A stretch of 64,000 bases of DNA from Candidatus Fermentithermobacillus carboniphilus (GCA_018208355.1 CP062796.1:1918517-1982516), one strand, 5' to 3'. Counted from the stretch's first letter, positions 2,395-59,635 are shown. Numbers and translations are program-made. The notes: a model not told the origin generated them from the letters alone.

Positions 2395-2685
2395 ATGCGG
2401 AATGTGCTCAGCCCGATTGAAGTCCGGGATAAGCTGGGTCGGATTATCGAGGAAGCTTACTACACCGGCAAACAGTTTATAATCGCCCGGCGCGGGAAGC
2501 CGATGGCTGCCATTGTCCCCATCAGCGAATACGAAAAATGGGAAAGAGAACGTGAGGAGTTCTTTGCTCTTATAGACAAGGTCTGGAAGGCCAACCGGGA
2601 GGTCGACCCGGATACGCTGGCACAAGATGTCGCCCAGGCCATTAGAGAGACGAGGGAAGGCGTAAATGCTCAAAGCGGTGCTTGA
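2395..2685 (+). CDS. Type II antitoxin, Phd/YefM family
   Basis: 96-aa protein with the YefM-like N-terminus (VRDKLGRIIEEAYYTGKQFIIARRGKPMAAIV). It overlaps the downstream PIN gene by 20 nt. A sigma-A-like promoter lies upstream at ~2330 (TTGACC..17 nt..TAATAT). Confidence 0.8.
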   Translation: MRNVLSPIEVRDKLGRIIEEAYYTGKQFIIARRGKPMAAIVPISEYEKWEREREEFFALIDKVWKANREVDPDTLAQDVAQAIRETREGVNAQSGA

Positions 2686-3085
2686 TACGAACGTCCTGGT
2701 CTCCGGTCTGATCAGCCCCAGCGGCATTCCAGCCCAACTGATCAGCGCGTGGCGCGGAAAGAAATTTGAACTGGTCATCTCCCCGGCCATTCTGCAAGAG
2801 CTCGCCGAAGTACTCCAGAGAGATAAAATAAAGCAGTACTATGAGCACATCGACAGAGATTTGGCTCAAAAATATGTCGCGGGCCTGAAGCGGTTTGCTA
2901 CGTTGGCGCCTGGCAAAGTCCAGATCCAGGGCGTATGTCCGGATCCGAACGACGACAAATTTGTCGCCGCTGCCCTAGAATCGCGAGCGGATTATATTGT
3001 GAGCGGGGACAACCGTTTGTTGAACCTTAAGGAGTACGAGGGAGTGAAGATACTGAAGCCAGCGGAATTCTTCGCACGGCTTTAA
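2666..3085 (+). CDS. PIN-domain toxin (VapC-like, putative toxin-antitoxin toxin component)
   Basis: 139 aa starting MLKAVLDTNVLVSGL, with the acidic PIN residues conserved (D..E..D..D). Translationally coupled to the Phd/YefM gene. Confidence 0.75.
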   Translation: MLKAVLDTNVLVSGLISPSGIPAQLISAWRGKKFELVISPAILQELAEVLQRDKIKQYYEHIDRDLAQKYVAGLKRFATLAPGKVQIQGVCPDPNDDKFVAAALESRADYIVSGDNRLLNLKEYEGVKILKPAEFFARL

Positions 3086-3109: not shown

Positions 3110-3931
3110 TCAATTTTTCCAACCACCGGTTAAGTTGGGTCTGACAGACTCTTTAAGCTTGGGGAGAACGTCAACGGATATCTCGTCAGGAGTACCTTCC
3201 GCCTGTATCTTTCCGCCGGAAAGGACGATGACTCGCGTCGCCAGCGCGCGGACCTCGGAGAAGTCGTGACTTACCAGCACCGTCGTGGTGCCCGAGTCTT
3301 CCAGGATGCCGCGGAACTCCTTAAGCAAGCCATGCTTTGTCATGAGGTCCAGTGAGGCGAAAGGCTCGTCCAGAAATAGCACCTTCGGTTCGAGTACAAG
3401 GGCGCGCGCCAGAGCGGTCCTCTGGGCCTCGCCGCCAGAGAGGGTGTGAGCCATTTGGCCTGATAGGTGGGTGATGCCGAACCGTTCTAGCCAAGTATCG
3501 ACTCGCCTTTCTGCGTCGTCTTTCAATCCCCTGAGAGATAACCCCAGGCGCACGTTTTCCCTGACCGTGCCATCGAGTAGAAGAGGTTCCTGAAACACCA
3601 CGGCCATTTCACGCCTGACAGAGAGGACGTTCTTCCTGGTTACCTGGTGACCCCGGAAGAAAACCGCGCCCTTCGTGGGAAACTCCAGGCACGCGAGGAT
3701 GGTGAGGAGAGTGCTTTTCCCTGCCCCGTTCGGGCCCACGATCGCCAGGACTTCTCCCGGAAACACCGAAATGTCCTCGACCTTTAGAATGGTTTTACCC
3801 TGTTTTATGACAACGAGGTCTTTGGCCCGGATGACCGGACCAGAGGAGAAACCCTGTTTGTGCTCAATAATCTCGGCACCAGATTCCAGGTTATCCCGTC
3901 TTCTCCATGTCTTGTTCAACAGCATATTCAC
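3110..3931 (-). CDS. tupC: Tungstate ABC transporter ATP-binding protein (TupC-like)
   Basis: Walker A GPNGAGKST, ABC signature LSGGEAQR and Walker B LFLDEP. No C-terminal TOBE domain. The start overlaps the permease stop (ATGA). Sits in an operon with a TupA-type binding protein. Confidence 0.7.
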   Translation of the reverse strand: MNMLLNKTWRRRDNLESGAEIIEHKQGFSSGPVIRAKDLVVIKQGKTILKVEDISVFPGEVLAIVGPNGAGKSTLLTILACLEFPTKGAVFFRGHQVTRKNVLSVRREMAVVFQEPLLLDGTVRENVRLGLSLRGLKDDAERRVDTWLERFGITHLSGQMAHTLSGGEAQRTALARALVLEPKVLFLDEPFASLDLMTKHGLLKEFRGILEDSGTTTVLVSHDFSEVRALATRVIVLSGGKIQAEGTPDEISVDVLPKLKESVRPNLTGGWKN

Positions 3932-4710
3932 AGTCTTCTCCTTGACTGTTGTACCACCGTGAGGATGAAAGTTATTCCATAGCTCAGGGCCATTAGAATA
4001 AAACTCAAAGCGATAGCCACGTCGAAGTTGCCCTTGCTTATTTCCATGACAATCGCTGTAGTGAGGACTCTGGTGTAGTGCCGGACGTTTCCGCCCACAG
4101 CCATAGATGCCCCCACTTCGGAGATGACGCTGCCGAGGCCAGCCATGACTGCCGCAAGGAGCCCGAACCTACATTCCTTTATAATGAGCCACCAGAACTG
4201 GACGGGGGATGCCCCGAGTGCCATTATCTGTAGCCTGAGTTTGGGGTTCAGCTGTTGGACCGAAGCCATGGTGAACCCGGTAACGATGGGAGAAGCTATC
4301 ACGGCCTGGGCGATTACCATCGCAGTCGGTGTATACATGAGACCGAGGCTTCCCAGAGGTCCGTTGCGCCACAACAGGATGCTTACCCACAGGCCCGCCA
4401 CAGTAGGGGGAAGCCCCATCCCGGTGTTGACGGCACCCACTACAACCTTTCTGAAGCGGAACTGCGCCACGGCCAAATATAGCCCCAGGGGTATGCCTAT
4501 AGCCAGGCTTATCAAGGTAGCAAGACCGGAAACCCTGAGGGTCAGGAAGGTGATCTCAAGTATCTCAGGGTCTCGTGCCACTATGAGCCGTATTGCCTTG
4601 ATGAGGCCAGTATAAACTAAGTCCACAAGACCACCCCTGTACGAAAGCGTAGCAGCGTTACAGGTGTTTACCCGGGTTGGAAGGCCGCGGGCATACGGAC
4701 AGACGTACAA
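3928..4710 (-). CDS. tupB: Tungstate ABC transporter permease (TupB-like)
   Basis: Multi-TM BPD-transporter-like permease, located between the ATPase and the TupA-type binding protein. Confidence 0.7.
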   Translation of the reverse strand: MYVCPYARGLPTRVNTCNAATLSYRGGLVDLVYTGLIKAIRLIVARDPEILEITFLTLRVSGLATLISLAIGIPLGLYLAVAQFRFRKVVVGAVNTGMGLPPTVAGLWVSILLWRNGPLGSLGLMYTPTAMVIAQAVIASPIVTGFTMASVQQLNPKLRLQIMALGASPVQFWWLIIKECRFGLLAAVMAGLGSVISEVGASMAVGGNVRHYTRVLTTAIVMEISKGNFDVAIALSFILMALSYGITFILTVVQQSRRRL

Positions 4711-4781
4711 ACCGCCGCGGCGGTTCGCACATGCGGCTACTGGCTAAAGAACCCAGTGGGGATATGCGAACCGCCGAATGT

Positions 4782-5645
4782 CTAGAACTCGGGCTTCCCG
4801 GCATCTGGCACGAAAAGCGGCTCACCGAATTTGTCCACACCGAACTCGCCTATTATTTTCTGAGTCTCCGGTGAGACCATGAAGTCCACGAAAGCCTTGG
4901 CCCCTTTGGTGTTAACCTTTGGGAATTTCTCGGGATTCACCTGCATCACGTGGTAAATATTCAAGAGCGACTTGTCAGGGGAATGCTTACCTGTCCGGTC
5001 GCTCTGCACGAGAATCACGAGATTCAGGTTCTTCTTGAGGGCAAGGTACGTAGCTCTATCGGTCAACACGTAGCCACCCTTCTCCGATGCTATGTTGAGG
5101 GTTTGGCCCATGCCGGTCCCTGATTCCTGATACCAGGGTCCTCCAGGAGTAATCCCTGCCTCTTTCCAAATTTCCAATTCCTTCTTGTGAGTGCCAGAAT
5201 CATCCCCCCGGGAGATGAAAAGAGCTCCTGCTTTGGCTATCTTCTCGAAAGCCAAGGGTGCGCTACTTATTCCCCTGATGCCCGCTGGATCTTTTTCGGG
5301 TCCGCATATGATGAAGTCATTGTGCATGACAAGCTGGCGGTTTACGGCGGCCCCGCTCTTGACAACCTTTAATTCGGCTTCTGGTGCGTGGACCAGGAGG
5401 ACGTCGGCCTCACCCCGTTCTCCCATGGCAAGGGCTTGCCCTGTCCCTACCGCCACGGTCTTTACTCTGTATCCCGTCTTTTTCTCGAATAGCGGTATCA
5501 GCACATCCAAAAGGCCCGAATCTTGAGTGCTCGTTGTCGTAGCCAGTATGACATCTTTCTTGGTCGTGCAGCCTGCCAGAAAGATTACAGCGGTCAGCAC
5601 AAGCAATGCCACCGGCGCCATCGATTCCCGCAATTTCCGCGTCAT
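4782..5645 (-). CDS. tupA: Tungstate-binding lipoprotein TupA (substrate-binding protein)
   Basis: Lipoprotein signal peptide with lipobox LAGC. TupA-type TTSTxDSGLLD motif, then a type-II periplasmic-binding fold. Confidence 0.75.
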   Translation of the reverse strand: MTRKLRESMAPVALLVLTAVIFLAGCTTKKDVILATTTSTQDSGLLDVLIPLFEKKTGYRVKTVAVGTGQALAMGERGEADVLLVHAPEAELKVVKSGAAVNRQLVMHNDFIICGPEKDPAGIRGISSAPLAFEKIAKAGALFISRGDDSGTHKKELEIWKEAGITPGGPWYQESGTGMGQTLNIASEKGGYVLTDRATYLALKKNLNLVILVQSDRTGKHSPDKSLLNIYHVMQVNPEKFPKVNTKGAKAFVDFMVSPETQKIIGEFGVDKFGEPLFVPDAGKPEF

Positions 5646-5649
5646 GACT

Positions 5650-6630
5650 TCACTCGCCTCCGTTTTCGGAATGTGCGCATTCTGAAGCGATCCCCCGGAG
5701 GATCTCCAGCCCGTGAGGGAGGGCCGGGAGGATGGCCTCCAGGTTCTCTCTCACTCCCCGGGGGCTCCCGGGCAGGTTCACTATGAGCGTCCTGCCTCTT
5801 ATGCCGGCAACCGCGCGTGAGAGCATGGCCCTTTCTGTATGCCTTAAACCTTCGAGCCGCATGGCCTCGGGTATTCCCGGAACCTGTCTCTCTATGACGT
5901 CAAGGGTAGCTTCGGGAGTGACGTCCCTGGGCCCCAGGCCTGTCCCTCCGGTGGTGAGCACAAGGTCGATGCCTTTCTCGTCGCAAAGGCTCTTGAGTTC
6001 CGCGGCTATCACCTCACGCTCATCGGGCACAACTGTATAGTAGACTACCTCTCCCAGACCCCTTACCAGTTCCCTGATGACTTCGGCGCTCTTATCCTCT
6101 CGCTCACCCCTAGAACCTTTGTCGCTTGCCGTTAGGATGGCGATGCGGTTGGCGTTGTTGACCCTGATCTTGTCACCCGTTTTGACGCGGCCTCCTGAGA
6201 GAACTCTTGCGAAGATCCCTTCTCGTGGCATCACGCAATCCCCGGTCAGGCGGTAGATTTCGCAGCGGGTGTGGCATATCTTGCCGATCTGGGTTACTTC
6301 GAGGAGGACATGGTCCCCAACCTGAAGCCTTGTCCCGACCGGAAGGCTGGGCAAGTCGATCCCCCTTGTGGTCAGGTTTTCGGCAAAATCCCCTGGTTTG
6401 ACATGGAGTCCTCTCTGGCGAGCTTTTTCAATGCTTTCTTCCGCCAGGAGGCTTACCTGCCTGTGCCAGGGACCGGCGTGGGCGTCTCCCAGGAGTCCGT
6501 GGCCTACCTTCAGTTCCGCCTCTCCCACATTTTGCTTACGCGTGCCCTTTTTCTCGCTGATGCATACGGCCACGATTTCCCCGGCTACGCCCGGCGGTGT
6601 GCGTGTATCGTCTCCCATGTGGTCGCTCAT
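5650..6630 (-). CDS. MOSC domain-MogA/MoaB fusion protein (molybdopterin adenylyltransferase-like). Start taken at the internal MSDHMGDD, which overlaps the moaC stop.
   Basis: N-terminal half carries the MOSC beta-barrel motifs (VGEAELKVGHGLLGDAHAG...GDFAENLTT). C-terminal half is MogA/MoaB (LTTGGTGLGPRDVTPEA, GSPRGVRENLEAILP). The track ORF extends further upstream into moaC, which looks like an artefact. Confidence 0.7.
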   Translation of the reverse strand: MSDHMGDDTRTPPGVAGEIVAVCISEKKGTRKQNVGEAELKVGHGLLGDAHAGPWHRQVSLLAEESIEKARQRGLHVKPGDFAENLTTRGIDLPSLPVGTRLQVGDHVLLEVTQIGKICHTRCEIYRLTGDCVMPREGIFARVLSGGRVKTGDKIRVNNANRIAILTASDKGSRGEREDKSAEVIRELVRGLGEVVYYTVVPDEREVIAAELKSLCDEKGIDLVLTTGGTGLGPRDVTPEATLDVIERQVPGIPEAMRLEGLRHTERAMLSRAVAGIRGRTLIVNLPGSPRGVRENLEAILPALPHGLEILRGIASECAHSENGGE

Positions 6631-7127
6631 TCTTCCTCTCCCTCCCTTAGGTAGGTTCCGCTTTTTCCGCCCGATTTCTTCACCAGCCTTATGTCGGTTA
6701 TGACCATACTCTTGTCTACCGCCTTGCACATGTCGTAAAGGGCCAGGCACGCTACGGAGACCGCAGTGAGGGCCTCCATTTCGCACCCGGTTTTTCCTTC
6801 GAGCCTGACAGTTGACTGGACCTGTACCGACGAATCCTCAAAATCCGGGATAAGGTTCACTTCGACACCGTTGAGATTGAGGACGTGGCAGAGCGGGATG
6901 AGGTCCCAGGTTTTCTTGGCGGCCATTATGCCTGCTACTTGCGCCGCCGTCAAAACGTCGCCCTTTGGCATCTTGCCCTGGGTGATCATCTCCAGGGTCG
7001 CAGGTTTCATCTTCACTTTGCCTCTTGCCACCGCTTCGCGGGTGGTCGGAGGTTTTCCGCCAACGTCCACCATGCGGACACCCCCTTCGGGGCGGACATG
7101 GGTGAGAGCGGGATTTTCGCTTTTCAA
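6627..7127 (-). CDS. moaC: Cyclic pyranopterin monophosphate synthase MoaC
   Basis: Aligns along its length with E. coli MoaC motifs: LTHV...MVDVGGK, WDLIPLCH and GKTGCEMEALTAVSVACLALYDMCKA. Confidence 0.9.
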   Translation of the reverse strand: MKSENPALTHVRPEGGVRMVDVGGKPPTTREAVARGKVKMKPATLEMITQGKMPKGDVLTAAQVAGIMAAKKTWDLIPLCHVLNLNGVEVNLIPDFEDSSVQVQSTVRLEGKTGCEMEALTAVSVACLALYDMCKAVDKSMVITDIRLVKKSGGKSGTYLREGEEE

Positions 7128-7131
7128 GACA

Positions 7132-8115
7132 TCACCCCCCGATCTGGCACATCCGTCTCGCCTGTGCCTCGTAGCTGGCCAAATGGTGTGCTTGCGGTTT
7201 TAGCTCCAGAGCGCGGGCAAAAGCGTCTTTCACGAGCCGCCTGATTTCTTCATCTGTCTGCCCGCTTCTCAGGATGCCCTTCACGTCGATCTCCAGGTCT
7301 GAGGCAAGACAGGGGCGTATTTTCCCGTCGGCCGTGAGCCTCAAGCGATTGCACTCGGTACAGAACGGCCTCGACAGGGCGGCGATGAAACCTACGGTCC
7401 CTTCGCCTCCTTTGATCTTGAAGCTCTCGGCAGGGCCGGCTCCATCCGGATGGGGTACCGGCTCAAGTTCTCCCACCTTCTTGACCTCCGCCACTATCTC
7501 TTCCAGGGTCACGCGCCCGTCCCTGGCTACCGTCGGGTCCGGGCCAATCGGCATGACTTCGATGAAGCGGACGTGCACCGGCATTTCAAGAGAAAGCCGC
7601 GCCATGTCCTGTATCTCAGTGGAGTTCAAACCCGCTATGACCACCATGTTCAATTTGACAGGATTGAGTCCGGAGTCGACGGCGGCCCGAATCCCTGAAA
7701 GGACGTCATGTATGCTCCCACGCCTGGTTATCCGCCGGAATTTCTCCGGATCAAGGGTATCGAGGCTTATATTGACCCTACCGAGCCCCGCGTCTTTCAA
7801 GGGTTTTACCAGGGGTGCCAGCAAGGTGCCGTTGGTCGTCATGGATATATCCGGAATCCCCGCGGTTCGAATCCATTTCACTAGATCTATCAGGTCTTTT
7901 CTGACGAGAGGTTCTCCTCCAGTCAGGCGGATGTGGTTGATGCCCAGTTCTCTGGCCACGTCCACGATCCTCACGATCTCCTCGTACCGGAGGATTTCCT
8001 CGTGGCCCAGCGGCAGGACACCTTCTTCTGGCATGCAATAGATGCACCGGAGGTTACAGCGATCTGTCACCGAAATCCTCAAGTAATTAATGGTGCGCCC
8101 GAATCTGTCCTTCAC
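7132..8115 (-). CDS. moaA: GTP 3',8-cyclase MoaA (radical SAM)
   Basis: CNLRCIYC radical-SAM cluster motif near the N-terminus, plus the C-terminal second-cluster cysteines (FCTECNRLRLTADGKIRPC). Confidence 0.9.
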   Translation of the reverse strand: MKDRFGRTINYLRISVTDRCNLRCIYCMPEEGVLPLGHEEILRYEEIVRIVDVARELGINHIRLTGGEPLVRKDLIDLVKWIRTAGIPDISMTTNGTLLAPLVKPLKDAGLGRVNISLDTLDPEKFRRITRRGSIHDVLSGIRAAVDSGLNPVKLNMVVIAGLNSTEIQDMARLSLEMPVHVRFIEVMPIGPDPTVARDGRVTLEEIVAEVKKVGELEPVPHPDGAGPAESFKIKGGEGTVGFIAALSRPFCTECNRLRLTADGKIRPCLASDLEIDVKGILRSGQTDEEIRRLVKDAFARALELKPQAHHLASYEAQARRMCQIGG

Positions 8116-8216
8116 TCCGGCATGCTCTCCTTCCGCTTACTACTCTGGTCAGGTTACTTGTCCGGGTCACTTGACTTCATGTCCTGCTCACCCTATTGAG
8201 CCTTGCAGCGGACTCC

Positions 8217-10145
8217 TTACAGCGGCCACTGTACCTTACCGGTATCCCTCGTGTCGTAACCGCCCAAAGCTTCGACCTTCTGTTTGAACTCGGCCGTCCC
8301 GATGATTTCCAGCACGGCTTTGACTCCGGGATGATCGAGGTACTCAGCGGGTATGGCCAGGTCGTACCGTTCTTCCTGCCAGGGGATGAAATCCAAGCCG
8401 AGAGCCCTTGCGGCTGATAAAACGCCCAGTCCAACGTCTGCCGCCCCGCTCCTTACGGCCGCAGCTACCTGAGTGTGGGTGTACCCTTCTCTCTCATATC
8501 CCCGGATTTTTGCCGGGTCGATCCCCCTGAGCTTGAGATGATAGTCCAGGAGAACCCGTGTACCCGCGCCACGCTGCCTGTTGATGAAAGTCACATCGGG
8601 ACGGGTGAGATCCTCTATGTCTCTGATACCCTTGGGATTTTGCGGCAATACCATCAAACCCTGCTGCCTGTACACGAGGGTGATGAGGTAGATGTCCATA
8701 TCTTTCAGGTAGCGCTGGATATACGGGATATTGTAAATGCCCGTTTCTTCGTCGAGAAGGTGAGTCCCCGCCAAGTGACACTCCCGACGCCTCAACGCGA
8801 AAAGTCCCCCGAGGCTTCCCTGATTGGCGGAAGAAAGCGTCATCTCAGGATGCTTTTCTCTGAGCAGGCTCGCGATTATATCCAGGGTGAGATCGTGGCT
8901 TCCGATGGCAACCACGGTGCCCAGTATTTCCGACAAAGGCTTAAGGAGCTGTACCTCCACGCTGCTGCCTGCGGTGATACCTTCTTTCCCGCGCGGGACC
9001 ACCAGGATCCCATCCGCCCGCACCAGAGAAGTAGTCAGGGCGGCTCCCCTTGCGATAGGAGTCGCAACCAGCTTTTCTCCGACTTTTCCCAGCTTTACTC
9101 GGACGAATTCGTCTACTCCCATGGATGAAGCAATGTCCCGGGAAAGGGTGGCACGGGTAGTTTCGGGAACCGGTGCGGGAAGGCCCAAGAGGCTCATTAT
9201 TAGGAACTTTGTGTAAAGATCCATAGCCAGCGCGGCTGAAACGGGATACCCTGGGATCCCGAGGACAGGTTTTCCTCGAACTTTCCCCAGGATCACAGGT
9301 TTTCCCGGACGGGTGGCGATCCCGTGGACCAAAACCTCGCCGAGTTCTTCGACGACCCGGGAGGTGAAATCCTCTGACCCTGCCGAGGAGCCGGCGCCCA
9401 CCAGCACCACGTCTGAGGCAGATACCGCTTCGTCCACGGTTTTCTTAATAAGCTCGTAATCGTCGGGGATGATCTCGGTGACCCGGGGCTCCCCACCCCA
9501 GGTTTTTATCATCGCCGAAAATATGGTCGAGTTGAACTCTATGAGTTCTCCGGGCCCGGGGGACCGCGTGGGCGGGACCAGCTCTGTGCCCGTCGGGATG
9601 ATGGTCACAACGGGCCGCTTCCGGACCTGTATTTCCGTAACTCCCCCGGCTAGGAGCGCTCCCAGGTCTACGGGCCTGAGTTTGTGATTGGCGGGGAGTA
9701 TGAGCTCGGTTTCGACCATGTCTTCTCCGTACACTCTGACGTTTTCCCACGGCGCGACAGGCGCAATTATCTCCAAGAGCCCGTTTCCTCTGTCGTGAAG
9801 GTCTTCCACCATGATGACGGCGTTTGTACCTTCGGGTAGAGGATCCCCCGTATCGACCCAGAAAGCATCCTCGCCGACCTTCAGGAGCTTGGGTGCGGTT
9901 TCCCGGGCCCCGAAAGTTATTTCCGCGTTCACAGCCACGCCATCCATGGCGGCTGCGTGGAAGTGGGGAGAGGAGATCTTCGCGAACACAGGAGCTGCGG
10001 TCACCCTGTCAAGACAATCGGGCACGGGCAGAGTCTCGGGAGGCATGACCATTCCCCCGAACTCTCTTGCCAAAATCTTCTGCCCTTCGGTGTACGGTAT
10101 GTCTTTGAGGTAAACTTGTCGCCGGTGTCCAGTATCGCTGCTCAT
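8217..10145 (-). CDS. moeA: Molybdopterin molybdenum/tungsten-transferase MoeA fused to a C-terminal periplasmic-binding-protein-like domain
   Basis: N-terminal ~400 aa is MoeA (AMDGVAV..., GGVTEIQVRKRPVVTIIPTGTELV, MoCF_biosynth GxxGxSxG-like region). C-terminal ~230 aa has a type-II PBP fold (LRGIDPAKIRGYEREGYTHTQVAAAVRSGAADVGLGVLSAARALGLDF). Confidence 0.8.
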   Translation of the reverse strand: MSSDTGHRRQVYLKDIPYTEGQKILAREFGGMVMPPETLPVPDCLDRVTAAPVFAKISSPHFHAAAMDGVAVNAEITFGARETAPKLLKVGEDAFWVDTGDPLPEGTNAVIMVEDLHDRGNGLLEIIAPVAPWENVRVYGEDMVETELILPANHKLRPVDLGALLAGGVTEIQVRKRPVVTIIPTGTELVPPTRSPGPGELIEFNSTIFSAMIKTWGGEPRVTEIIPDDYELIKKTVDEAVSASDVVLVGAGSSAGSEDFTSRVVEELGEVLVHGIATRPGKPVILGKVRGKPVLGIPGYPVSAALAMDLYTKFLIMSLLGLPAPVPETTRATLSRDIASSMGVDEFVRVKLGKVGEKLVATPIARGAALTTSLVRADGILVVPRGKEGITAGSSVEVQLLKPLSEILGTVVAIGSHDLTLDIIASLLREKHPEMTLSSANQGSLGGLFALRRRECHLAGTHLLDEETGIYNIPYIQRYLKDMDIYLITLVYRQQGLMVLPQNPKGIRDIEDLTRPDVTFINRQRGAGTRVLLDYHLKLRGIDPAKIRGYEREGYTHTQVAAAVRSGAADVGLGVLSAARALGLDFIPWQEERYDLAIPAEYLDHPGVKAVLEIIGTAEFKQKVEALGGYDTRDTGKVQWPL

Positions 10146-10176
10146 GGCCGAACCTCCATTTAGATACCTTCGCGTT

Positions 10177-11583
10177 TCACGTGAGCCTCACTTCCACAAG
10201 GCTCCCCGCCTTCAACCCCTCGTACTCAAGTGGGATCACCACTTCTCCGTGGGATTTAACGAGGGTGGAGATGAGGCCCGATTTCCCCAGCACAGGGTCT
10301 GCCCAGAACTCTCCGTTTTCCAGGCGAAGCCTCACCCTGATGTGGTCTTCTCTTCCCGGGGCCGACGAGATGTTCCGGGAAAGCCTGGCCATCACGGTTT
10401 TTTCTCGGCTCAGGAAGTCGAAATGCAGGTCGAACGCAGTTTCGGAACCCTGTCGCGTGTTATGGGCCGTGGAGGCTGAACTTTTCTCGTATAACCGGAC
10501 CACCGCGGGTTTCACGAAGAGACTGAAAACGGTGAGGGCCGAAACAGGGTGACCCGGGAGTCCGAAAACAGGTTTATCCCTGCAAATGCCGAGTATTGCC
10601 GGTTTACCCGGCTTTAAGGCGACGCCGTGGACCAAAACTCCCGGAGGGCCGAGGTCGGAGATGACCTGGACTACAACGTCCCGGGTGCCCACGGAGCTTC
10701 CGCCTGACACAACCAGAAGGTCTGCTGTGTCCAACGCCTCCTCCAATGGCTGCCTGACATCTTCGTATGTGTCGCTTGAAATACCCAGCGTGATGGGTAT
10801 GGCGCCGCACGAGAGGGCGGATGCCGCCAGAGAGTATGTGTTTATGTCGCGGATCTGGCCCGGTCCGGGACTCTTGTCGGGAGGGACGATTTCATCGCCC
10901 GTGGAAAGGATGGCCACTCTGGGTCTCCTGAAGACCGGGACGGTGACGTGACCGAGAGCTGCAAGTGCCCCGATCTCGAAGGCCCTTAAGACCCTCCCCG
11001 TGAGGAGGAGGGTTTCCCCGGACGTCACGTCTTCGCCTTTGTGTATGACGTTTTCCCCGGGAGCGACGGGTTTTTTGACAAGGACAGTCCTGTCGTCCAG
11101 GAGATCCGTGTGTTCTATCATCACGCACGCATCGGCGCCACAAGGCAGGCTCCCGCCCGTCGGGATCCTTGCCGCCTGACCGGATAAGAGATTTTTCTCG
11201 GGCATGGCCCCCATTCGTATGTCTTCCACGATCTCAAGGATAGCGGGAAGCGCTTCGGTGGCTCCGAAAGTGTCTTTTGCCATTACCGCATAACCGTCTA
11301 CCGTCGATCTCGCGAAAGGAGGAACGTCTTCGCAGGCAAGGATATCCCGGGCAAGAACCCTCCCTGCCGCGGCGGTTATGTGTACTTCCTCGATATCGAG
11401 TGGCTTCACTTTCCATGCCTTTAACAGGATGTCTCTTGCTTGGTCCACGGTCTTGACGTCAAAGTAACTCTCCACTGTGCATCGAAACCCTCCAGGCCCA
11501 GAACTAAAATGAGCGCCTCCTTTGGCGCTCGCGACATCCCGAGACGGATCGCTTGTGCCTCTTGCGCTTTCAGGGCGGCTCAA
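10177..11583 (-). CDS. moeA: Molybdopterin molybdenumtransferase MoeA (second paralogue). The true start is probably an internal GTG near 11475.
   Basis: MoeA N-domain (STVDGYAVMAKD), MoCF domain (PVFGLPGHPVSA) and MoeA_C (ENGEFWADPVLGKSGLISTLVKSHGEVVIP). The first ~36 aa of the track ORF (TTG start) overlap the riboswitch expression platform. A GGAGGG Shine-Dalgarno precedes the GTG for VESYFDV. Confidence 0.85.
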   Translation of the reverse strand: MSRPESARGTSDPSRDVASAKGGAHFSSGPGGFRCTVESYFDVKTVDQARDILLKAWKVKPLDIEEVHITAAAGRVLARDILACEDVPPFARSTVDGYAVMAKDTFGATEALPAILEIVEDIRMGAMPEKNLLSGQAARIPTGGSLPCGADACVMIEHTDLLDDRTVLVKKPVAPGENVIHKGEDVTSGETLLLTGRVLRAFEIGALAALGHVTVPVFRRPRVAILSTGDEIVPPDKSPGPGQIRDINTYSLAASALSCGAIPITLGISSDTYEDVRQPLEEALDTADLLVVSGGSSVGTRDVVVQVISDLGPPGVLVHGVALKPGKPAILGICRDKPVFGLPGHPVSALTVFSLFVKPAVVRLYEKSSASTAHNTRQGSETAFDLHFDFLSREKTVMARLSRNISSAPGREDHIRVRLRLENGEFWADPVLGKSGLISTLVKSHGEVVIPLEYEGLKAGSLVEVRLT

Positions 11584-11639
11584 AAAGAACCGCCTTTTGC
11601 CACAAGTCGGCCTTATGACCGTTCCGTCTCTTGATATGA

Positions 11640-11758
11640 GACCTGCTCCTTTCCAAAGGAGGGAGGCGGGTCCGTTTCCAGACCAACCCTATCGGCCTTA
11701 ATCCATGGCTGCCTTAAAGGGCAACTTCAGGCCTTAAGGCTCGGAGCACATATTCAGT
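11640..11758 (-). ncRNA. Molybdenum-cofactor (Moco) riboswitch-like leader upstream of the moeA-moaA-moaC-mogA-tupABC operon
   Basis: The minus-strand transcript reads ...GCUCCGAGCC UUAAGGCCUGA ... GGUCUGGAAACGGACCCGCCUCCCUCC UUUGGAAAGGAGCAG. It contains the hallmark blocks CUCCGAGCC, GGAAAC, CCGCCUCCC and a terminal GGAAAGGAG, in the order expected for the Moco RNA motif. It lies ~60-165 nt upstream of a Moco-biosynthesis and tungstate-uptake operon. Coordinates are approximate. Confidence 0.6.
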
Positions 11759-11998
11759 TTAGTCCATTCTAACACATAGAAGTTGGATAGGTAAGGGTCG
11801 ACCTCATGATGTCAACCTCTTGATGTCGATGGCAAGTTTTTCTGTCACCCAACGGGCGTCCCGCTAATACACTGGAAAGACTCGGTGAAACCGGGAAGCG
11901 TTTGCGAAAGGTTCTCCCGGGATACCACCTCATCGGGGGCCGAGATACCGTTCGAGGTGGCCGGGAGTGACCAGAACTGCCGAGAGGGGACGAATTCC

Positions 11999-12676
11999 GT
12001 GGTTTTCGACTGGCATGCTATCATTTTATCTGCGGCGATGACGCTTGCGGTGAGCATGGATGGAGTCCTCGTAGGGGCCGCATTTTCCATCAGAGGACTT
12101 GCGTTGTCCGTGGAATCTTACTGGCTCATTGGCATGTGCACCGCCATCATGGTGACCGTTTCCATCGTTATCGGACGATTCATCTCTGTCTGGTTACCTC
12201 TTCGCCTCACCCGAGCCCTTGGAGCCGGGACCCTCAGCGGTTTCGGAGCATGGCAGCTCGGGCAGGCACTTTTAGCCAGGATGTCTCGGCGGAAGACGTC
12301 TAGGGGCGAAGGAAGCATTTGCACCGCCACTCGGGATGAGACGTTTGGGGGAGGGACCATCCGGACCGAAACCATCCGGGACATACTGGAAGAACCTATC
12401 CTGGCCGACCGGGACCTTTCGGGCACGGTGGATGCGCGTGAATCGGTCTTTCTGGGTATTGCCCTTGGCTTGGATGCTCTTGCGGCCGGGCTTGGCGCGT
12501 CGATGGCTGGTTTTTCTCTCGCCATTATCCCTTTGGTGGCCCTGGCGAGCCCCTTATTTGTGCACCTCGGAATTCTTTTGGGACGGCGCTTCGGGAGTAA
12601 AGTCCCCGAGAAAGATGGCCTTATTCCCGGGATTTTGCTTGTACTCATCGGGCTTTTGAAATTTCTCAGAATCTGA
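11999..12676 (+). CDS. ytaF: Sporulation membrane protein YtaF-like (DUF204/MntP-type duplicated membrane domain). The track ORF starts at 11885; the likely start is the GTG at 11999 or the ATG at 12038.
   Basis: Two DUF204-type repeats (LAVSMDGVLVGAAFSIRGL and ALGLDALAAGLGASMAGFS), separated by a charged linker (ADRDLSGTVDARESVFLGIALGLDA) as in YtaF. Confidence 0.55.
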   Translation: MVFDWHAIILSAAMTLAVSMDGVLVGAAFSIRGLALSVESYWLIGMCTAIMVTVSIVIGRFISVWLPLRLTRALGAGTLSGFGAWQLGQALLARMSRRKTSRGEGSICTATRDETFGGGTIRTETIRDILEEPILADRDLSGTVDARESVFLGIALGLDALAAGLGASMAGFSLAIIPLVALASPLFVHLGILLGRRFGSKVPEKDGLIPGILLVLIGLLKFLRI

Positions 12677-17356: not shown

Positions 17357-17662
17357 ATGCTAGTAGGTTTACCGACCGTGGAAAGAGTGCTTACTGTTTC
17401 CGAGGTAGCAGAACGTCTCTCTGTTCACCCTAAAACGGTCTATAACATGCTGGAGCGGGGTGAACTCAGGGGGGTTAAGGTCGGACGGGTATGGCGCGTA
17501 CCGTCCGAAGAGTTGGAAGTCTTCTTGCGCGGCGGCAGGGCTGCTTGTGAAGAGCGACCTCTTCTGCGAGAGTACACGCGGAGGGAAATCCGTCGGTTTC
17601 TCGCGGCGGACAAGGTGGACGAAGAAACAATGCGCAAAGTGGAGCAACTGCTCTGCCAATGA
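17357..17662 (+). CDS. Excisionase/MerR-type HTH DNA-binding protein (putative antitoxin)
   Basis: LTVSEVAERLSVHPKTVYNMLERGELRGVKVGRVWRV is an excisionase-family HTH. Its stop overlaps the start of the PIN gene. Confidence 0.6.
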   Translation: MLVGLPTVERVLTVSEVAERLSVHPKTVYNMLERGELRGVKVGRVWRVPSEELEVFLRGGRAACEERPLLREYTRREIRRFLAADKVDEETMRKVEQLLCQ

Positions 17663-18120
17663 AACGCGTCTTTCTGGATGCGAGTTGCTGGGTCGCAGCT
17701 GCGGGTTCAGCTACCGTCGGCTCCTCACTCATCCTGAAGCTTGCTCGCGCCAGCCACGTTCGCTTGGTAGCGACCAGGCGGGTGCTCCAGGAGGCGGAAT
17801 ACAACATCCGGACCAAAATGGGGGAGGAATCCCTCCTCCGCTATTATCAGCTGCTGGGCTCGGTCGAGCTGGAGTTGGTTTCCCCGGTCACCTCGGAGGA
17901 GGAAGCGAAGTGGTTGAGCCTGGTCACCCCAAAAGATGCACACGTGCTAGCCGGGGCAGCCAAGGCAAAGGCCGACGTCTTGATTTCCCTGGACCGGCGC
18001 CACATCCTGACCGAACGTGCCCGCGAAGGATTTCCCATCCCAGTCCAGGACACGGGAGAATTTCTGCGGGGCATAGCTGAGAAGGTCGAATCACAACGGA
18101 GAGATTGTGGGGAGCCGTGA
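17659..18120 (+). CDS. PIN-domain protein (putative toxin of an HTH-PIN toxin-antitoxin pair)
   Basis: MKRVFLDASCWVAAAG...VLISLDRRHIL pattern with conserved acidic residues. Coupled to the upstream HTH gene. Confidence 0.65.
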   Translation: MKRVFLDASCWVAAAGSATVGSSLILKLARASHVRLVATRRVLQEAEYNIRTKMGEESLLRYYQLLGSVELELVSPVTSEEEAKWLSLVTPKDAHVLAGAAKAKADVLISLDRRHILTERAREGFPIPVQDTGEFLRGIAEKVESQRRDCGEP

Positions 18121-18161: not shown

Positions 18162-18850
18162 GTAAGCGTCAAATGGTCCCCACATTGCAGGAAAAACTGC
18201 AGCGGGTTTGATGTGGGCATTCGAAGAGAAACAGGATAACTAGGCTTGCTGATTTACCCTGCAATAGTCGGGTAGAGAGTCCGACCACGGCTGCAGCTCG
18301 TCCAGATCGCCGTCTCCGAGGTTCGGCAGCTTTTCAAAGAGGTACTTCAAGTATTCGAACGGAATCAATCCGTTTTCTTTGGCTGTCTCCACAATGCTGT
18401 GGACAATGGAACTGGCCCTGGCACCTTTTGGCGTGTTACAGAACAGCCAGCCCTTCCGGCCTATCACGAACGGTTTGATTGAACGTTCGCAGCGGTTATT
18501 GTCGATCTCAAGCCTTCCGTCCAACAGGAAACGTTCAAGTTTGCTCCACTGGCTCTGGCAATACTTTATGGCCTGACCCAGTAGGCTCTGAGGCAGCACT
18601 CTGGACGACTGAGTCTTCAGCCAGGCTGAGAAAGCATCCAGAACAGGGCGGCTTCGTTCCAGCCGCGCCATGTATCGCTCTTCTGGACCAACATCGCTCA
18701 AGTCGCGTTCTATGGCAAAGAGCTCGTTGCAGAAGTTAAGCCCCTCCAAGGCAGTGGTTGGAGATGCCCGCTTGTCGGCTGGCAGTACGTTCAGTGCATC
18801 GTTGAACTTCCGCATCCCCGGAGCAACGTCACCAGGGCTGAAATGGCTAC
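18162..18850 (-). mobile_element. IS66-family remnant: intact terminal end (GTAAGCGTC...) plus only the C-terminal ~190 aa of the TnpC transposase (ORF 18240-18815). 5'-truncated.
   Basis: The ORF has IS66 TnpC C-terminal motifs (IDNNRCERSIKPFVIGRKGWLFCNTPKGARASSIVHSIVETAKENGLIPFEYL). GTAAGCG, typical of IS66 terminal inverted repeats, sits ~75 bp beyond the stop. Confidence 0.65.
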
Positions 18851-23624: not shown

Positions 23625-24662
23625 TTATCCTGCCGCTTTATTGTAAGGATGCTGCTTGTCCTTGGCGGGCGACTTTCGCGACAGGTCTTCCCACTTTCCG
23701 CACCTTGAGCCCCACCGGGTCACGGGAGAGCCGTCTATCAGGATCTCTTGCACCTCGCACGAGTTGGCGCAGTCTTCGCAGATGAACCCGCGACTTTCGG
23801 CCGAGAATGAAGCCACGGTGCTGACTCCCCTGAAGTTACTCCGGGCGCCTGTCTCAAGCCACCTTTCTCGGGCGAACAGAGCTGCCCCGAGAGCTCCCAT
23901 GACCTTGAAATGAGGCGGCACCGTCACCTTCATGTCGATCTTCGTCTCAAGGGCCCACCGCATACCGACATTGGCGGCCACTCCTCCCTGAAACAGGACG
24001 CGGGGACGTATTGGCTGACCTCGTGCCACGTTGGTTATTAAGTTGGTGGCAAGGGCCATGCACAACCCCGCGATGAGATCTTCTTTTCTGTACCCCATCT
24101 GCTGCTTGTGGATCAGGTCCGATTTGGCAAACACGCCGCAGCGGCCCGCGATCCTCGCTGGCGACGACGACCTGAGGGCCCACTCGCCAAACTGTTCAAT
24201 TGGGATACCGGGGCGCGAAGCCTGATGGTCCAGGAACGATCCGGTGCCGGCGGTGCACACCATGTTCATGTTAAAGCTCACAGGGTATCCGTCCTTAAAG
24301 AATATGACTTTAGAATCCTGCCCGCCTATGTCAATGACGGTACCTACATCCGGAAACAGGAAAGACGCAGCCCGGGCGTGGGCCGAGATCTCATTCTTGA
24401 CGACATCGGCCCCGACGATGACCCGCGCCAGCTCCCTCCCCGAACCGGTGGTCCCGACCATGCGGATGGATTCGGTCAGACCCGCTGCTAGCAGGTGTCT
24501 GAAGCTCTCCTGAACGGCCCAGATCGGGCCCCCATGGTTGCGTATGTAGTCCTCAAACACGATGCTGCCGTTATCGGCTATGAGCACGAGCTTGGTCGTG
24601 AGGCTCCCTACATCTATGCCAAGGAAGCCATCCTTCGGTGGGGAAGATTGTGCCATGTTCAT
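23625..24662 (-). CDS. BadF/BadG/BcrA/BcrD-type ATPase (acyl-CoA dehydratase activase-like, YjiL-like). Start at MNMAQ, overlapping the upstream stop (ATGA).
   Basis: ASKHA-fold motifs: GIDVGSLTTKLVLI, DIGGQDSKVI, CTAGTGSFLD and GGVAANVGMRWALE. Confidence 0.75.
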   Translation of the reverse strand: MNMAQSSPPKDGFLGIDVGSLTTKLVLIADNGSIVFEDYIRNHGGPIWAVQESFRHLLAAGLTESIRMVGTTGSGRELARVIVGADVVKNEISAHARAASFLFPDVGTVIDIGGQDSKVIFFKDGYPVSFNMNMVCTAGTGSFLDHQASRPGIPIEQFGEWALRSSSPARIAGRCGVFAKSDLIHKQQMGYRKEDLIAGLCMALATNLITNVARGQPIRPRVLFQGGVAANVGMRWALETKIDMKVTVPPHFKVMGALGAALFARERWLETGARSNFRGVSTVASFSAESRGFICEDCANSCEVQEILIDGSPVTRWGSRCGKWEDLSRKSPAKDKQHPYNKAAG

Positions 24663-26092
24663 AGCCGCTTTTTCCTCCTTCCTGACAGCAACTCGCAGAA
24701 TGCCTCCAGCCTCGTCATGAGCCCCGCCAATCCCGTCTGCTCTGACACCGCCAGCGAGAGGACAGGTATATCTAGGTCGTTGGAAACCTTTACCAGTATG
24801 TTCTGAGCCACTATCTCCGGCATGCATGTGAAAGGAAAAACGTGAATCACTCCGTCCATACCTCTCCTGCTGGCCAGCACGGTTTCTCCCACGGTTTCCT
24901 GCCCGTGGCCGCCGACGGAAACGGGAATATAGCGTCCCGCGGCTCGGATAACCTCGAAGCGTTCCCATAGAGCCCGGGGAGTCTTCAACAGATGAGCGCC
25001 AACCCAGTTCGAGACATTGAGCCTCCTGTACACTCTCACCCGCGTATCGAGTGACCCCAAGACCTTCTCGATATCCCTATTGGCAAACGGCTCGTTGACG
25101 ACATAGATCTCACCGACCAGTGCTACCCTGAGGGGTTCTCCCGGATGAGTCCACAACTTTTTCATATCCCGCACGAACTCGGTGTAAACTGCCTCAACGC
25201 TCCTCATGTCAGTCGCAGCCTGAACCCCCGAAAGAAATTGCCTGTAGCGCCTGTCCCCAGCTCCTCTTTCCTCCTCCCGCGCGCGAGTCTCCCTGAGGAT
25301 GTCCTCGGCCCTGTCAAGCACGGCGAGTTTCTTCACGGCCAGCGATATTGCCCTGACCAGGGCACCGATCCTCGGGCTTCCTATCGCTTCCCTGACCACC
25401 TGCAGGAACCTCTCGCCCTTTTCCCTCCAGGGCAGCGGCGAATCAACCGCAAGGATCTTCACCCTGTATCCTGCACGGTGAAGTATCTGCTCCATGATCT
25501 GGGCATACCAGCCAAGGCGGCACCTGCCCTTCCCCTGGACCATCAGTATCCGGTCGACGCCTTTCTGGATGAGGCTCCTTATCTGGCCGAGCAAAGTCAC
25601 CATCGGATAACAGATGAACTCAGGGGCAAGTTCCCGGCCTAGGCTCACTACTCCATCTGATAGGGGTTCTGGCTCGACGACTCGGGTGCCAAGCTCTCGC
25701 AGCATCGACGTCACAGGGATCCTGAGGGTACCCATATCTACGATGCCCAGGACCCGACCACCTGAACCGCCAGCCCAGCCGCCGCTGTGCAGGGAGTTCA
25801 GGCCCGCGAGGACCGCCTCCCCGACGCCTTCTACCGCCGGACGGCCCGGGTTCAGGTCCCCCGGAGCAGACGGACCCGCGGATGGGCCCGAGGCGATCAA
25901 CTTCCCGAAGGCGTGTGCCTGCTTTAGGGATAGGTCCATGAATACCTCGAGACGGGTCAACAGGCCGGCTTCTCCCGTGTGTTCGTCGACTACCAGGCTG
26001 ATGAACGGTATCCCGTTATCCTCCGCCGCCTGTGCTATGTAGCTCTCTATAACCGATGCTGGACCGCACGAAAATGCCGACACCATTATCAT
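24659..26092 (-). CDS. Acyl-CoA dehydratase activase-related/HgdB-YjiM-like protein (C-terminal part of a DUF2229-type protein). Start taken at MIMVSAF.
   Basis: Repeated F.C.P-type motifs (MVSAFSCGPASV... and VIHVFPFTCMPEIVAQN) characteristic of DUF2229/CoA-enzyme-activase-associated proteins. The N-terminal 118 aa of the track ORF overlap the next gene and look spurious. Confidence 0.55.
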   Translation of the reverse strand: MIMVSAFSCGPASVIESYIAQAAEDNGIPFISLVVDEHTGEAGLLTRLEVFMDLSLKQAHAFGKLIASGPSAGPSAPGDLNPGRPAVEGVGEAVLAGLNSLHSGGWAGGSGGRVLGIVDMGTLRIPVTSMLRELGTRVVEPEPLSDGVVSLGRELAPEFICYPMVTLLGQIRSLIQKGVDRILMVQGKGRCRLGWYAQIMEQILHRAGYRVKILAVDSPLPWREKGERFLQVVREAIGSPRIGALVRAISLAVKKLAVLDRAEDILRETRAREEERGAGDRRYRQFLSGVQAATDMRSVEAVYTEFVRDMKKLWTHPGEPLRVALVGEIYVVNEPFANRDIEKVLGSLDTRVRVYRRLNVSNWVGAHLLKTPRALWERFEVIRAAGRYIPVSVGGHGQETVGETVLASRRGMDGVIHVFPFTCMPEIVAQNILVKVSNDLDIPVLSLAVSEQTGLAGLMTRLEAFCELLSGRRKKRL

Positions 26093-26112
26093 GCGGCGTA
26101 TCTTCCTGGTCT

Positions 26113-26775
26113 TCAGCAGATGAAGGGCAGAACCCAGTATGTGCCCCTCGATGGACCAGAGTTCTCGCCCTCGAATATGTCCCGCAGGTACTGTCGGCTT
26201 GCCTCCTCGGGTACCATTTCTGGAAGGATGACAGGGCCGTAAACCGATACTGTTCGAACTACCGTCCTCCCGAAGATGTCGTGCAGCACGTACGCATGCC
26301 CCAGGACAGCTGTGGCATCGTCCCCGGCGGCCCGGAGTGTGTTGCTCTCGGGGAAGTTCCGAAGATTCCGGAGAAGGCAGGCAGAGTCCGCACCTACCGC
26401 AACATCTCGCCCTTCGACGTAATCCGCTATGCAGCCGCATCCGCATGCCATGGCGATCACCGGATTTATGATCTGGTCCTCAGGAAGCCCGAGTCCGGCC
26501 TTCAGCATTGAGGCCAGGCCGATCATCTTGGGGCAGCAGTAGTTTTCCGGCGATATGGATACAGGGGTCGGAAGGAAGATGGCGTCCGCGCCGCAGTCGG
26601 TCAGCAGTTTCCTGGCGTGAGGAAAAGCGATCTTCACTGATATGCAGGGTTCGTCCGTGGGGCACAGCGTGAGCTGTTCAAGGTCCTTTGCGCTGGACGG
26701 AGGGCTTTCGACGAATTCAACTCCCAATTGGCTGAGAAATGTCCGATACAGCGGGAACAGGTAGTAGACTGTCAT
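26113..26775 (-). CDS. DUF2229 N-terminal domain protein (possibly the N-terminal half of a gene split from 24659-26092)
   Basis: MTVYYLFPLYRTFLSQLGVEFVESPP...CISVKIAFPHARKLL...AIFLPTPVSI matches the DUF2229 N-terminus. The ORF ends 20 nt before the next ORF's likely start in a different frame. Confidence 0.5.
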   Translation of the reverse strand: MTVYYLFPLYRTFLSQLGVEFVESPPSSAKDLEQLTLCPTDEPCISVKIAFPHARKLLTDCGADAIFLPTPVSISPENYCCPKMIGLASMLKAGLGLPEDQIINPVIAMACGCGCIADYVEGRDVAVGADSACLLRNLRNFPESNTLRAAGDDATAVLGHAYVLHDIFGRTVVRTVSVYGPVILPEMVPEEASRQYLRDIFEGENSGPSRGTYWVLPFIC

Positions 26776-28633: not shown

Positions 28634-28710
28634 TGGTCGGGGCGAGTGGATTTGAACCACCGACCTCATGGTCCCGAACCATGCGCGCTGCCAAGCTGCG
28701 CTACGCCCCG
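28634..28710 (-). tRNA. tRNA-Pro (anticodon CGG)
   Basis: The reverse complement folds as a canonical cloverleaf: acceptor CGGGGCG/CGCCCCG, D-arm GCGC-AGCUUGGCA-GCGC, anticodon stem CAUGG/CCAUG with loop UUCGGGA, T-arm GGUGG-UUCAAAU-CCACU, discriminator A and an encoded CCA. Confidence 0.85.
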
Positions 28711-59500: not shown

Positions 59501-59635
59501 AAAAGTCCCTTGGACCTGCCCCGATGTTTGATGGTACGGATGGCGGTATGTAAGCCAAACATGATCAAATGGAATTCCTGTTCATCGGATGGAATTCCAG
59601 TTAAGTTAAGTCTCTGGCGGAGGGATTGAGGGACG

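Follow-up and report, generated by a model that had tools for sequence, protein, structure and literature searches.

The 64,000-nucleotide (nt) stretch of Candidatus Fermentithermobacillus carboniphilus DNA analysed here (GCA_018208355.1, CP062796.1:1918517-1982516), hereafter referred to as the window, carries on its minus strand an eight-gene operon for tungstate import and pterin-cofactor synthesis. The operon is likely a single transcription unit under a riboswitch aptamer of the molybdenum cofactor (Moco) family which lacks stem P3 and belongs to the subclass ascribed to the tungsten cofactor (Tuco), and which would control the genes through a terminator/antiterminator OFF switch. The elements of the leader are the following:

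11766-11771, minus strand: putative extended -10 box TAGAAT with an upstream TG, read from the sequence
11630-11758, minus strand: Moco/Tuco riboswitch aptamer RF01055, P3-less subclass (Rfam match and covariation)
11653-11662, minus strand: 3' core of the aptamer, CCUCCUUUGG (P5 mini-hairpin and variable loop), proposed 5' strand of the antiterminator
11626-11642, minus strand: inverted repeat GTCTC-ATATCAA-GAGAC, not considered part of the switch
11502-11530, minus strand: terminator-like hairpin GAGCGCC-AAAGGA-GGCGCUC followed by AUUUUAGUU (terminator scan; conserved)

The Rfam scan of the whole window at the gathering threshold resulted in two matches, RF01055 among them. The aptamer scored 68.4 bits against a gathering score of 36 (E = 2.3e-14) and covered model positions 1-135, which is the full length; an E-value of 1.8e-16 was determined when a 501-nt region was rescanned. 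The first-pass annotation, made from the sequence alone, had recognized Moco-RNA blocks in the leader and proposed a covariance-model search as a check. The search was significant, and the blocks CUCCGAGCC, GGAAAC, CCGCCUCCC and GGAAAGGAG were all located within the RF01055 alignment. In the cmscan alignments, the window aptamer and its five relatives all have gaps in the columns of stem P3. Stems P1, P2, P4 and P5 were supported by covariation in the six aptamers, with 95.8% of the cells paired and 13 pairs changed on both sides. None of 500 shuffles equalled the observed value, and 26-58% pairing was obtained with the slid controls. RF01055 was the sole match in a permissive Rfam scan of the leader (E<=1), and no further RNA family was detected in the 154-nt spacer.

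The aptamer heads the operon on the same strand; its model ends 154 nt before the GTG start codon of moeA, a somewhat shorter spacing than the earlier estimate of about 165 nt. The leader sequence was identical in an independent Logan assembly (L001). With the -10 box as read from the sequence, transcription would start at about 11759, on the first aptamer base. The -10 region aligned across the leaders of the window and of three related loci (L033, L034 and L035); the exact TAGAAT site was not among the sites listed by a consensus promoter scan.

The terminator-like hairpin (11530-11511) has a 7-bp stem with six GC pairs, a 6-nt loop and the tail ATTTTAGTTC reaching to about 11502, with a folding energy of -13.1 kcal/mol. 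With its GC-rich stem-loop, the U tract immediately behind it and a position past the aptamer and ahead of the start codon, it has the form of an intrinsic terminator, and it occurs only once in the window. The hairpin GAGCGCC-AAAGGA(G)-GGCGCUC with its U-rich tail was conserved in the window, L033, L034 and L035. Its distance from the end of P1 (GGAGCA) was about 54 nt in L033 and L034, 113 nt in the window (99 nt if counted from where the aptamer model ends) and 227 nt in L035.

The loop and inner stem of the hairpin, CCAAAGGAGG (11516-11525), are a perfect 10-nt reverse complement of CCUCCUUUGG and are proposed to form the 3' strand of the antiterminator. Complements of the observed length were reached in 12 of 2000 dinucleotide shuffles of the window leader; the corresponding counts were 2 for L033 and 5 for L034 (both with 11 nt), 42 for L035 and 28 for a fourth related locus, L040. 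The 10-11-nt complement was thus reached by 0.1-2% of the shuffles per leader, values which refer to five leaders with few independent lineages and long spacers. In the moeA leader of L040, the P5 loop reads CCCUCAUGG, the terminator GGUUGCC-AUGAG-GGCAGCC followed by UUUCUCU, and the loop region CCAUGAGGG. Because CCCUCAUGG and CCAUGAGGG both differ from their counterparts and yet pair with each other, the proposed antiterminator pairing is kept with different bases. The folds forced into the terminator or the antiterminator were 1.5-3.6 kcal/mol apart in all five leaders. Judging from the leader sequences, the expression platform is probably transcriptional and operates via the conserved hairpin at 11511-11530, with termination as the presumed output of the riboswitch. 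There is also a small chance that the pairing of the terminator loop with the variable P5 loop across 54-227 nt represents a distinct long-range design of a Tuco platform.

According to the proposed mechanism, transcription would begin just upstream of the P3-less aptamer. When the cofactor is scarce, CCUCCUUUGG would pair with CCAAAGGAGG, the hairpin would be blocked and RNA polymerase would read into moeA. When the cofactor is bound, the aptamer core would be held, the GC-rich hairpin and U tract would form at 11502-11530, and termination 35 nt before the GTG start codon would shut off all eight genes. TupABC would import tungstate, coupled to the pterin-cofactor pathway in one transcription unit of an uncultured member of the Bacillota. 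MoaA and MoaC would make cyclic pyranopterin monophosphate (cPMP), the MogA domain would adenylylate molybdopterin (MPT), and the metal would be inserted by two non-redundant MoeA paralogues, one of which would bring a cytoplasmic oxyanion-binding domain (PBP_like, similar to periplasmic binding proteins).

Several observations weigh against termination control. The unconstrained minimum free energy (MFE) fold already holds the aptamer and the terminator together. The long spacers of the window and L035 past P1 (113 and 227 nt) are awkward for co-transcriptional switching, and in L035 an extra terminator-like hairpin is placed between the aptamer and the conserved terminator. None of the U tracts (AUUUUAGUU, AAAUUAUUU, AAUUUGUUU) is more than moderate. 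The CCUCC of the aptamer core resembles an anti-Shine-Dalgarno (anti-SD) sequence, so its complementarity to the GGAGG loop is partly cheap, and the five leaders on which the antiterminator comparison is based amount effectively to three lineages. The long and variable distance from the aptamer (about 54-227 nt past the end of P1) and the moderate U tract would also suit a hairpin that is an independent element, for example a decoy or mimic of an SD, a protein-binding site or a determinant of RNA stability, or a switch that acts on translation. A perfect AAAGGAGG is displayed in the hairpin loop, the Tuco riboswitches on tupABC and wor1 of Eubacterium limosum use sequestors of the ribosome-binding site (RBS), and the second aptamer of L040, located before tupA, has no detectable complement to a downstream hairpin. 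An independent or translational role is nevertheless unlikely, since the true SD of moeA is a separate GGAGGG located 18-23 nt downstream of the hairpin, the 10-11-nt complement is well beyond SD length and L040 keeps the pairing without an SD-like sequence (CCAUGAGGG). The hairpin with its T-run also has the features required by the terminator scan. In L033 and L034, AAAGGAGG is followed by in-frame stops and by no start codon or open reading frame (ORF); on this ground, a reading of the hairpin as the RBS for a small ORF or a longer MoeA was rejected too.

Transcriptional control had been proposed by the first-pass annotation as well, with the GTCTC...GAGAC hairpin right past the aptamer as the platform. 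The 5-bp inverted repeat is present (GTCTC at 11642-11638, GAGAC at 11630-11626) and overlaps the extended 3' side of P1. It is not followed by a U tract, as GAGACGGAACGG comes next, and was not reported by the terminator scan. It is also absent from the MFE fold, in which GAGACGGA of this region pairs with UCCGUCUC at about 11551-11544. Furthermore, it lies inside an insertion (alignment columns 161-183) not present in L033, L034 and L035, in all of which the riboswitch and the terminator are retained. Due to the lack of conservation and of a U tract, the repeat is not supported as the platform, and such a role is very improbable; the transcriptional mode of control was probably assigned correctly.

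The eight co-directional genes of the operon are arranged in the order moeA, moeA-PBP_like, moaA, moaC, MOSC-mogA, tupA, tupB and tupC, with intergenic spacings of 31, 101, 4, -4, 4, 155 and 2 nt. On the plus strand, a PhdYeFM/PIN pair converges on the 3' end of the operon and closes it. In agreement with the gene content first read from the sequence (TupABC, moaA, moaC, two moeA genes and a mogA-like gene on the minus strand), all eight were located by Pfam and NCBIfam at the same positions:

10177-11475, minus strand: moeA paralogue 1, 432 amino acids (aa), domains I-IV only, GTG start (Pfam MoeA_N, MoCF_biosynth, MoeA_C)
8217-10145, minus strand: moeA paralogue 2 with a C-terminal PBP_like domain (PF12727), 642 aa (NF011068, PF12727)
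7132-8115, minus strand: moaA, GTP 3',8-cyclase, radical SAM (TIGR02666, 377 bits versus a cutoff of 284; Pfam Radical_SAM, Mob_synth_C)
6627-7127, minus strand: moaC, cPMP synthase (TIGR00581, 209.5 bits versus a cutoff of 141.5; PF01967)
5650-6630, minus strand: MOSC (YuaD-like, three invariant Cys) fused to a MogA/MoaB-type molybdopterin adenylyltransferase, 326 aa
4782-5645, minus strand: tupA-like tungstate-binding lipoprotein (matches to PDB 3LR1 and 5MY5)
3928-4626, minus strand: tupB-like ABC permease, 232 aa as called on L001 (NF038017, 261.8 bits; cutoff 100)
3110-3925, minus strand: tupC-like ABC ATPase, 271 aa as called on L001, the last gene of the operon (PF00005)

MoeA paralogue 1 is preceded by the SD GGAGGG at 11488-11493, was called with 432 aa also on L001, and its N-terminus aligned with the starts in L033 and L035. 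A seven-codon out-of-frame upstream ORF (11459-11482, minus strand; ATG CAC AGT GGA GAG TTA CTT TGA) overlaps the moeA GTG; its start is located 5 nt past the GGAGGG and the annotated GTG 12 nt from the same SD, and its sequence was identical in the independent assembly. The tupA-tupB gap (4627-4781, minus strand) contains, just past the tupA stop, a long inverted repeat, CGGCGGTTCGCATAT ... ATGTGCGAACCGCCG, with the arms about 30 nt apart, which could be an intercistronic stabiliser or attenuator setting the ratio of binding protein to permease.

The evidence favours tungsten over molybdenum as the metal served, as had been suggested at first reading, and Tuco would accordingly be the presumed ligand of the riboswitch. 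Among 176 Moco RNAs, 58 were without P3; these showed a near-perfect match to Tuco metabolism, judged by tupA/tupB, and were associated with MPT-biosynthesis genes (Regulski et al. 2008, PMC2408646). Tuco markers were present in 17 of 19 organisms with P3-less RNAs, with stated exceptions (PMC2408646), and the same rule, P3-less means Tuco, was applied in later work on E. limosum (PMC11725836). The TupA-like protein matched the solved structures 3LR1 (E = 1.1e-68) and 5MY5 (E = 6.4e-63) in the PDB sequence search and conserves TTTSTQDSGLL, VHA, SRGDDSGT and LTDR. In comparison with 3LR1 and 3MUQ, ATTTSTQDSGLL, LLVHAP, FISRGDDSGTH and LTDRATY of the site aligned. The oxyanion site of TupA consists of TTTS, His59, Arg118, Thr124 and Asp170 (PMC5517513), and the TTTS, His, Arg-x5-Thr and Asp were all kept in the window protein. 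The tungsten reading is supported by the P3-less aptamer, whose subclass tracks tupA/tupB, together with these conserved residues; the MoeA-PBP_like paralogue stands beside a second moeA and tupA, as described in PMC11733289.

A number of results point the other way. NF041772, the sole NCBIfam match of the TupA-like protein, scored 228.8 bits, below the cutoff of 400, and NF041773 scored 156.6 bits with the TupB-like protein, below the cutoff of 320. The names TupA-like and TupB-like are used because these were the best or only specific matches but remained below the equivalog cutoffs. TupA proteins also bind molybdate with nM affinity (PMC5517513). A scan of window ORFs, small ones outside the scanned set excepted, detected neither a tungsten- or molybdenum-dependent enzyme nor moaD, moaE, moeB or mobA. 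The assignment of P3-less aptamers to Tuco is correlative, in the literature too. Since moaA, moaC, mogA and moeA are also shared by the two cofactor pathways, the operon with its riboswitch might serve Moco, or molybdenum and tungsten alike; the aptamer would then sense Moco or a metal-pterin common to both, and molybdate would be a further substrate of the Tup-like transporter. This is improbable given the missing P3 and the complete TTTS/His/Arg/Thr/Asp site, the characterised TupA members preferring tungstate about 1000-fold or more (PMC5517513). The co-occurrence of the MoeA-PBP_like paralogue with TupA and the distribution of the riboswitch among related operons, described next, argue in the same direction.

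The five-gene core (moeA, moeA-PBP_like, moaA, moaC, MOSC-mogA) was detected in the same order in ten further loci, including the complete genome of Thermosediminibacter oceani. The core is followed by tupABC in the window, L033, L034, L035, L039 and L040; tupABC is absent from L036, L037, L038, L041 and L042. The moeA leaders of the window, L033, L034, L035 and L040 contain a P3-less RF01055 aptamer, and none was found in the operons without tup genes or in L039. The riboswitch was thus present in five of the six operons with tupABC versus none of the five without, a suggestive association among phylogenetically non-independent loci. The operon of T. oceani DSM 16646 (CP002131; L037) resembles that of the window in the five-gene order and in both fusions, with 66% identity between the MOSC-MogA proteins, but, unlike the window, has no downstream tupABC and no RF01055 match upstream. 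Scans with MoeA paralogue 1 in reference genomes and JGI metagenomes resulted only in relatives with up to 51% identity (Nitrospirota, Paenibacillus and others), in none of which a riboswitch was found with the aptamer model. Three further contigs comprised two tup-less operons without a riboswitch and one contig that was cut off.

The leaders of two related loci carry additional elements. In L040, a second P3-less RF01055 aptamer (10990-11106, plus strand) is located directly upstream of tupA, inside the operon; as no complement to a downstream hairpin was detected, it probably has a different platform, possibly a translational one. The same locus has an ORF of about 60 aa (5178-5358, plus strand; VDAIKKEQ...KIMACQLGCF) with its own AAAGGAGGG SD between the terminator of the Tuco riboswitch and moeA, with no Pfam match on record and no counterpart in the leader of the window. 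In L035 (4612-4830, plus strand), the extra terminator-like hairpin right past the aptamer reads GACCGA...UCGGUC followed by AUUUUUU, and a CCGCCUCCC-containing stretch ahead of the conserved terminator may be a decayed second aptamer.

Two fused proteins of the operon had been described as unusual in the first-pass annotation. Both fusions are real, and neither proved to be unusual. In the MOSC-MogA protein, the MOSC half scored above the gathering score of PF03473 and has the MOSC beta-barrel fold; it was placed by fold search only, as no PDB entry was detectable by sequence search. The MogA half exceeded the domain cutoffs of PF00994 / TIGR00177 and has the Mog/Cnx1G fold. Its score was below the NCBIfam equivalog cutoff, which, as with the TupA-like and TupB-like proteins, counts against the proposed reading of the operon. 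In a search limited to 8000 candidates, a limit which was reached, PF03473 and PF00994 were both present in all 120 homologues among the matches listed, at identities down to 52%; the genomes named there include T. oceani, Thermovorax and Fervidicola.

The MOSC half alone recovered 304 representative clusters at E<=1e-30 in an exhaustive search. The best 150 of these consisted of 24 MOSC-MogA, 7 MoaC-MOSC, 1 MOSC-MoaC, 1 MoaC-MOSC-MogA, 45 stand-alone and 72 fragmentary or unclear forms. The proportions are rough, as the 72 classed as MOSC with an unmatched extension are probably fragments or over-called starts. The signature GDAHAG...TQIGKxCxxxCx8C was invariant across all MOSC forms, and the cysteines C119, C123 and C132 were invariant in the alignments of 25 and of 43 sequences. 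The recurrence of MOSC-MogA across homologues and MOSC architectures therefore indicates a recurrent joining of neighbouring pathway genes, and the window protein is a common case of it, a YuaD-like three-Cys module joined to an adenylyltransferase. In the known MoaC/MOSC fusion (NF011069), MOSC is fused to MoaC on its N-terminal side, whereas in the window it is fused to MogA on its C-terminal side. The stand-alone YuaD-like proteins (PDB 1ORU) correspond to the unfused form of the module, and a triple MoaC-MOSC-MogA fusion exists as well (P0250). MOSC proteins were noted in molybdenum/tungsten cofactor operons as early as 2006, and no biochemical characterisation of the YuaD-like three-Cys subfamily was found in the literature. 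There is a slim chance that the MOSC module performs an undescribed step of tungsten-cofactor synthesis between cPMP formation and MPT adenylylation, the candidates being sulfur delivery and the hand-off of a dithiolene intermediate.

The second fusion, MoeA-PBP_like, scored 768 bits against a cutoff of 534 with the curated NCBIfam equivalog NF011068, its residues 8-639 covering profile positions 2-644 of 647, and 261 bits were determined for the PBP_like domain with PF12727. The MoeA part matched PDB 1UZ5, 1XI8 and 1WU2 in the PDB sequence search, in which no match was obtained for the PBP_like domain. The domain is a predicted oxyanion binder. In a BLAST alignment, its FINRQRGAGT was placed over FISRGDDSGT of the window TupA-like protein, with a non-significant E-value of 0.07. 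Such fusions were already described in PMC10102598 and PMC11733289. In Desulfovibrio vulgaris, the pair consists of DVU0951, which contains PF12727, and DVU2990, with 33% identity and a cofitness of 0.85 (Trotter et al. 2023, PMC10102598), and both MoeA types are needed for the tungsten cofactor of AOR (PMC10102598). The archaeal MoeA1-PBP fusion, also present in some bacteria, adjoins a second moeA and co-occurs with TupA (Martinez et al. 2025, PMC11733289), and the AlphaFold model in that work suggests that the oxyanion is guided by the PBP domain to the active site of MoeA. The window likewise has a PF12727-tailed MoeA beside a plain one, with TupA co-occurring. The two window paralogues are 37% identical, compared with 33% in D. 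vulgaris, and the pair shows no difference of substance from the MoeA1-PBP_like/MoeA2 pairs of archaea and D. vulgaris, being another bacterial member.

The fusion ORFs could in principle result from an overlooked stop or a frameshift near 6630 or 8900, and no observation was found to support this. Position 6630 is an ordinary coupled junction of two genes, as the ATG of MOSC-mogA, located behind GGGAGGGAGAGG, overlaps the TGA stop of moaC in ATGA. An identical 326-aa MOSC-MogA within the same operon was called on two independent Logan assemblies, and two-domain proteins of this type number in the thousands (at least 120 listed). The AlphaFold2 model of MOSC-MogA was confident across the domain junction, and MoeA-PBP_like fits the 647-position equivalog model from end to end. 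An artefact is practically out of the question.

The arrangement of a P3-less aptamer before MPT-biosynthesis and tungstate-transport genes in a Clostridia-type organism is not new, as it was already described in 2008. In Syntrophomonas wolfei, P3-lacking Moco RNAs are associated with an operon for MPT synthesis and molybdate/tungstate transport (PMC2408646). The likeness to the window comprises the aptamer core, the lack of P3, the position upstream of MPT-biosynthesis and tup genes, the Clostridia-type host and the intrinsic terminators which follow some of these RNAs. S. wolfei has three tandem aptamers in contrast to the single one of the window. Unlike in that system, the window terminator is separated by 113 nt from P1 (by 99 nt from the aptamer model) and the proposed antiterminator is formed from the P5 loop region, not from P1. 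In E. limosum, P3-less Tuco riboswitches with terminator or RBS-sequestor platforms were reported, two of the five being of the terminator type (PMC11725836). These share with the window the absence of P3, the association with tupABC or other tungsten-related operons, and a platform consisting of a hairpin and a segment complementary to a conserved aptamer helix. By analogy, the switch logic of the window would match these riboswitches and, in general terms, that of Regulski et al. The cofactor-biosynthesis genes of E. limosum are under Rex and its tupABC is controlled translationally, whereas in the window one riboswitch heads both biosynthesis and transport.

The reasoning for tungsten has likewise been published. 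The locus is a clean and complete riboswitch-controlled tungsten-cofactor regulon of an uncultured member of the Bacillota, with uptake and biosynthesis under one aptamer, and adds little beyond annotation. It is a possible compact test case for the sensing of the tungsten cofactor by P3-less aptamers, for the channelling of tungstate into MoeA by PBP_like and for the role of the three-Cys MOSC; these questions were already posed in the literature and are not opened by the window. On the whole, the first-pass annotation had read the sequence accurately; the unusualness of the fusions and the hairpin chosen as the platform were its parts that did not hold.

Other features of the window and of the related loci were recorded in parallel. 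Divergent from the riboswitch promoter, a gene for a YtaF-like (Mntp family) sporulation membrane protein is located at 11885-12676 (plus strand), and L033 and L034 have the same neighbour. Along with MgtE and an M20 peptidase, this gene is a marker of local synteny and of a spore-forming Bacillota origin. A c-di-AMP riboswitch (RF00379, 85.4 bits) was detected at the edge of the contig of L035 (1-140, minus strand). The PhdYeFM antitoxin/PIN toxin pair converging on the operon end is located at 2395-3085 (plus strand), and a second PIN-domain ORF (17659-18120, plus strand) is near an IS66 transposase fragment (18240-18815, minus strand). An IS110-family transposase (26913-28259, plus strand) adjoins a tRNA gene (28637-28710, minus strand; 62.9 bits). 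The region 29772-55861 (plus strand) contains a sigma-54 activator followed by an M20 peptidase, two PALP enzymes, four amidohydrolases, a sodium:solute symporter, DUF1177 and a Cys/Met pyridoxal-phosphate enzyme, and resembles a sigma-54-controlled catabolic island for amino acids or N-heterocycles. Two gene sets of the 2-hydroxyacyl-CoA dehydratase type (HGD-D and BcrAD/BadFG activator ATPases) are present at 23625-26446 (minus strand) and 58424-61704 (plus strand).

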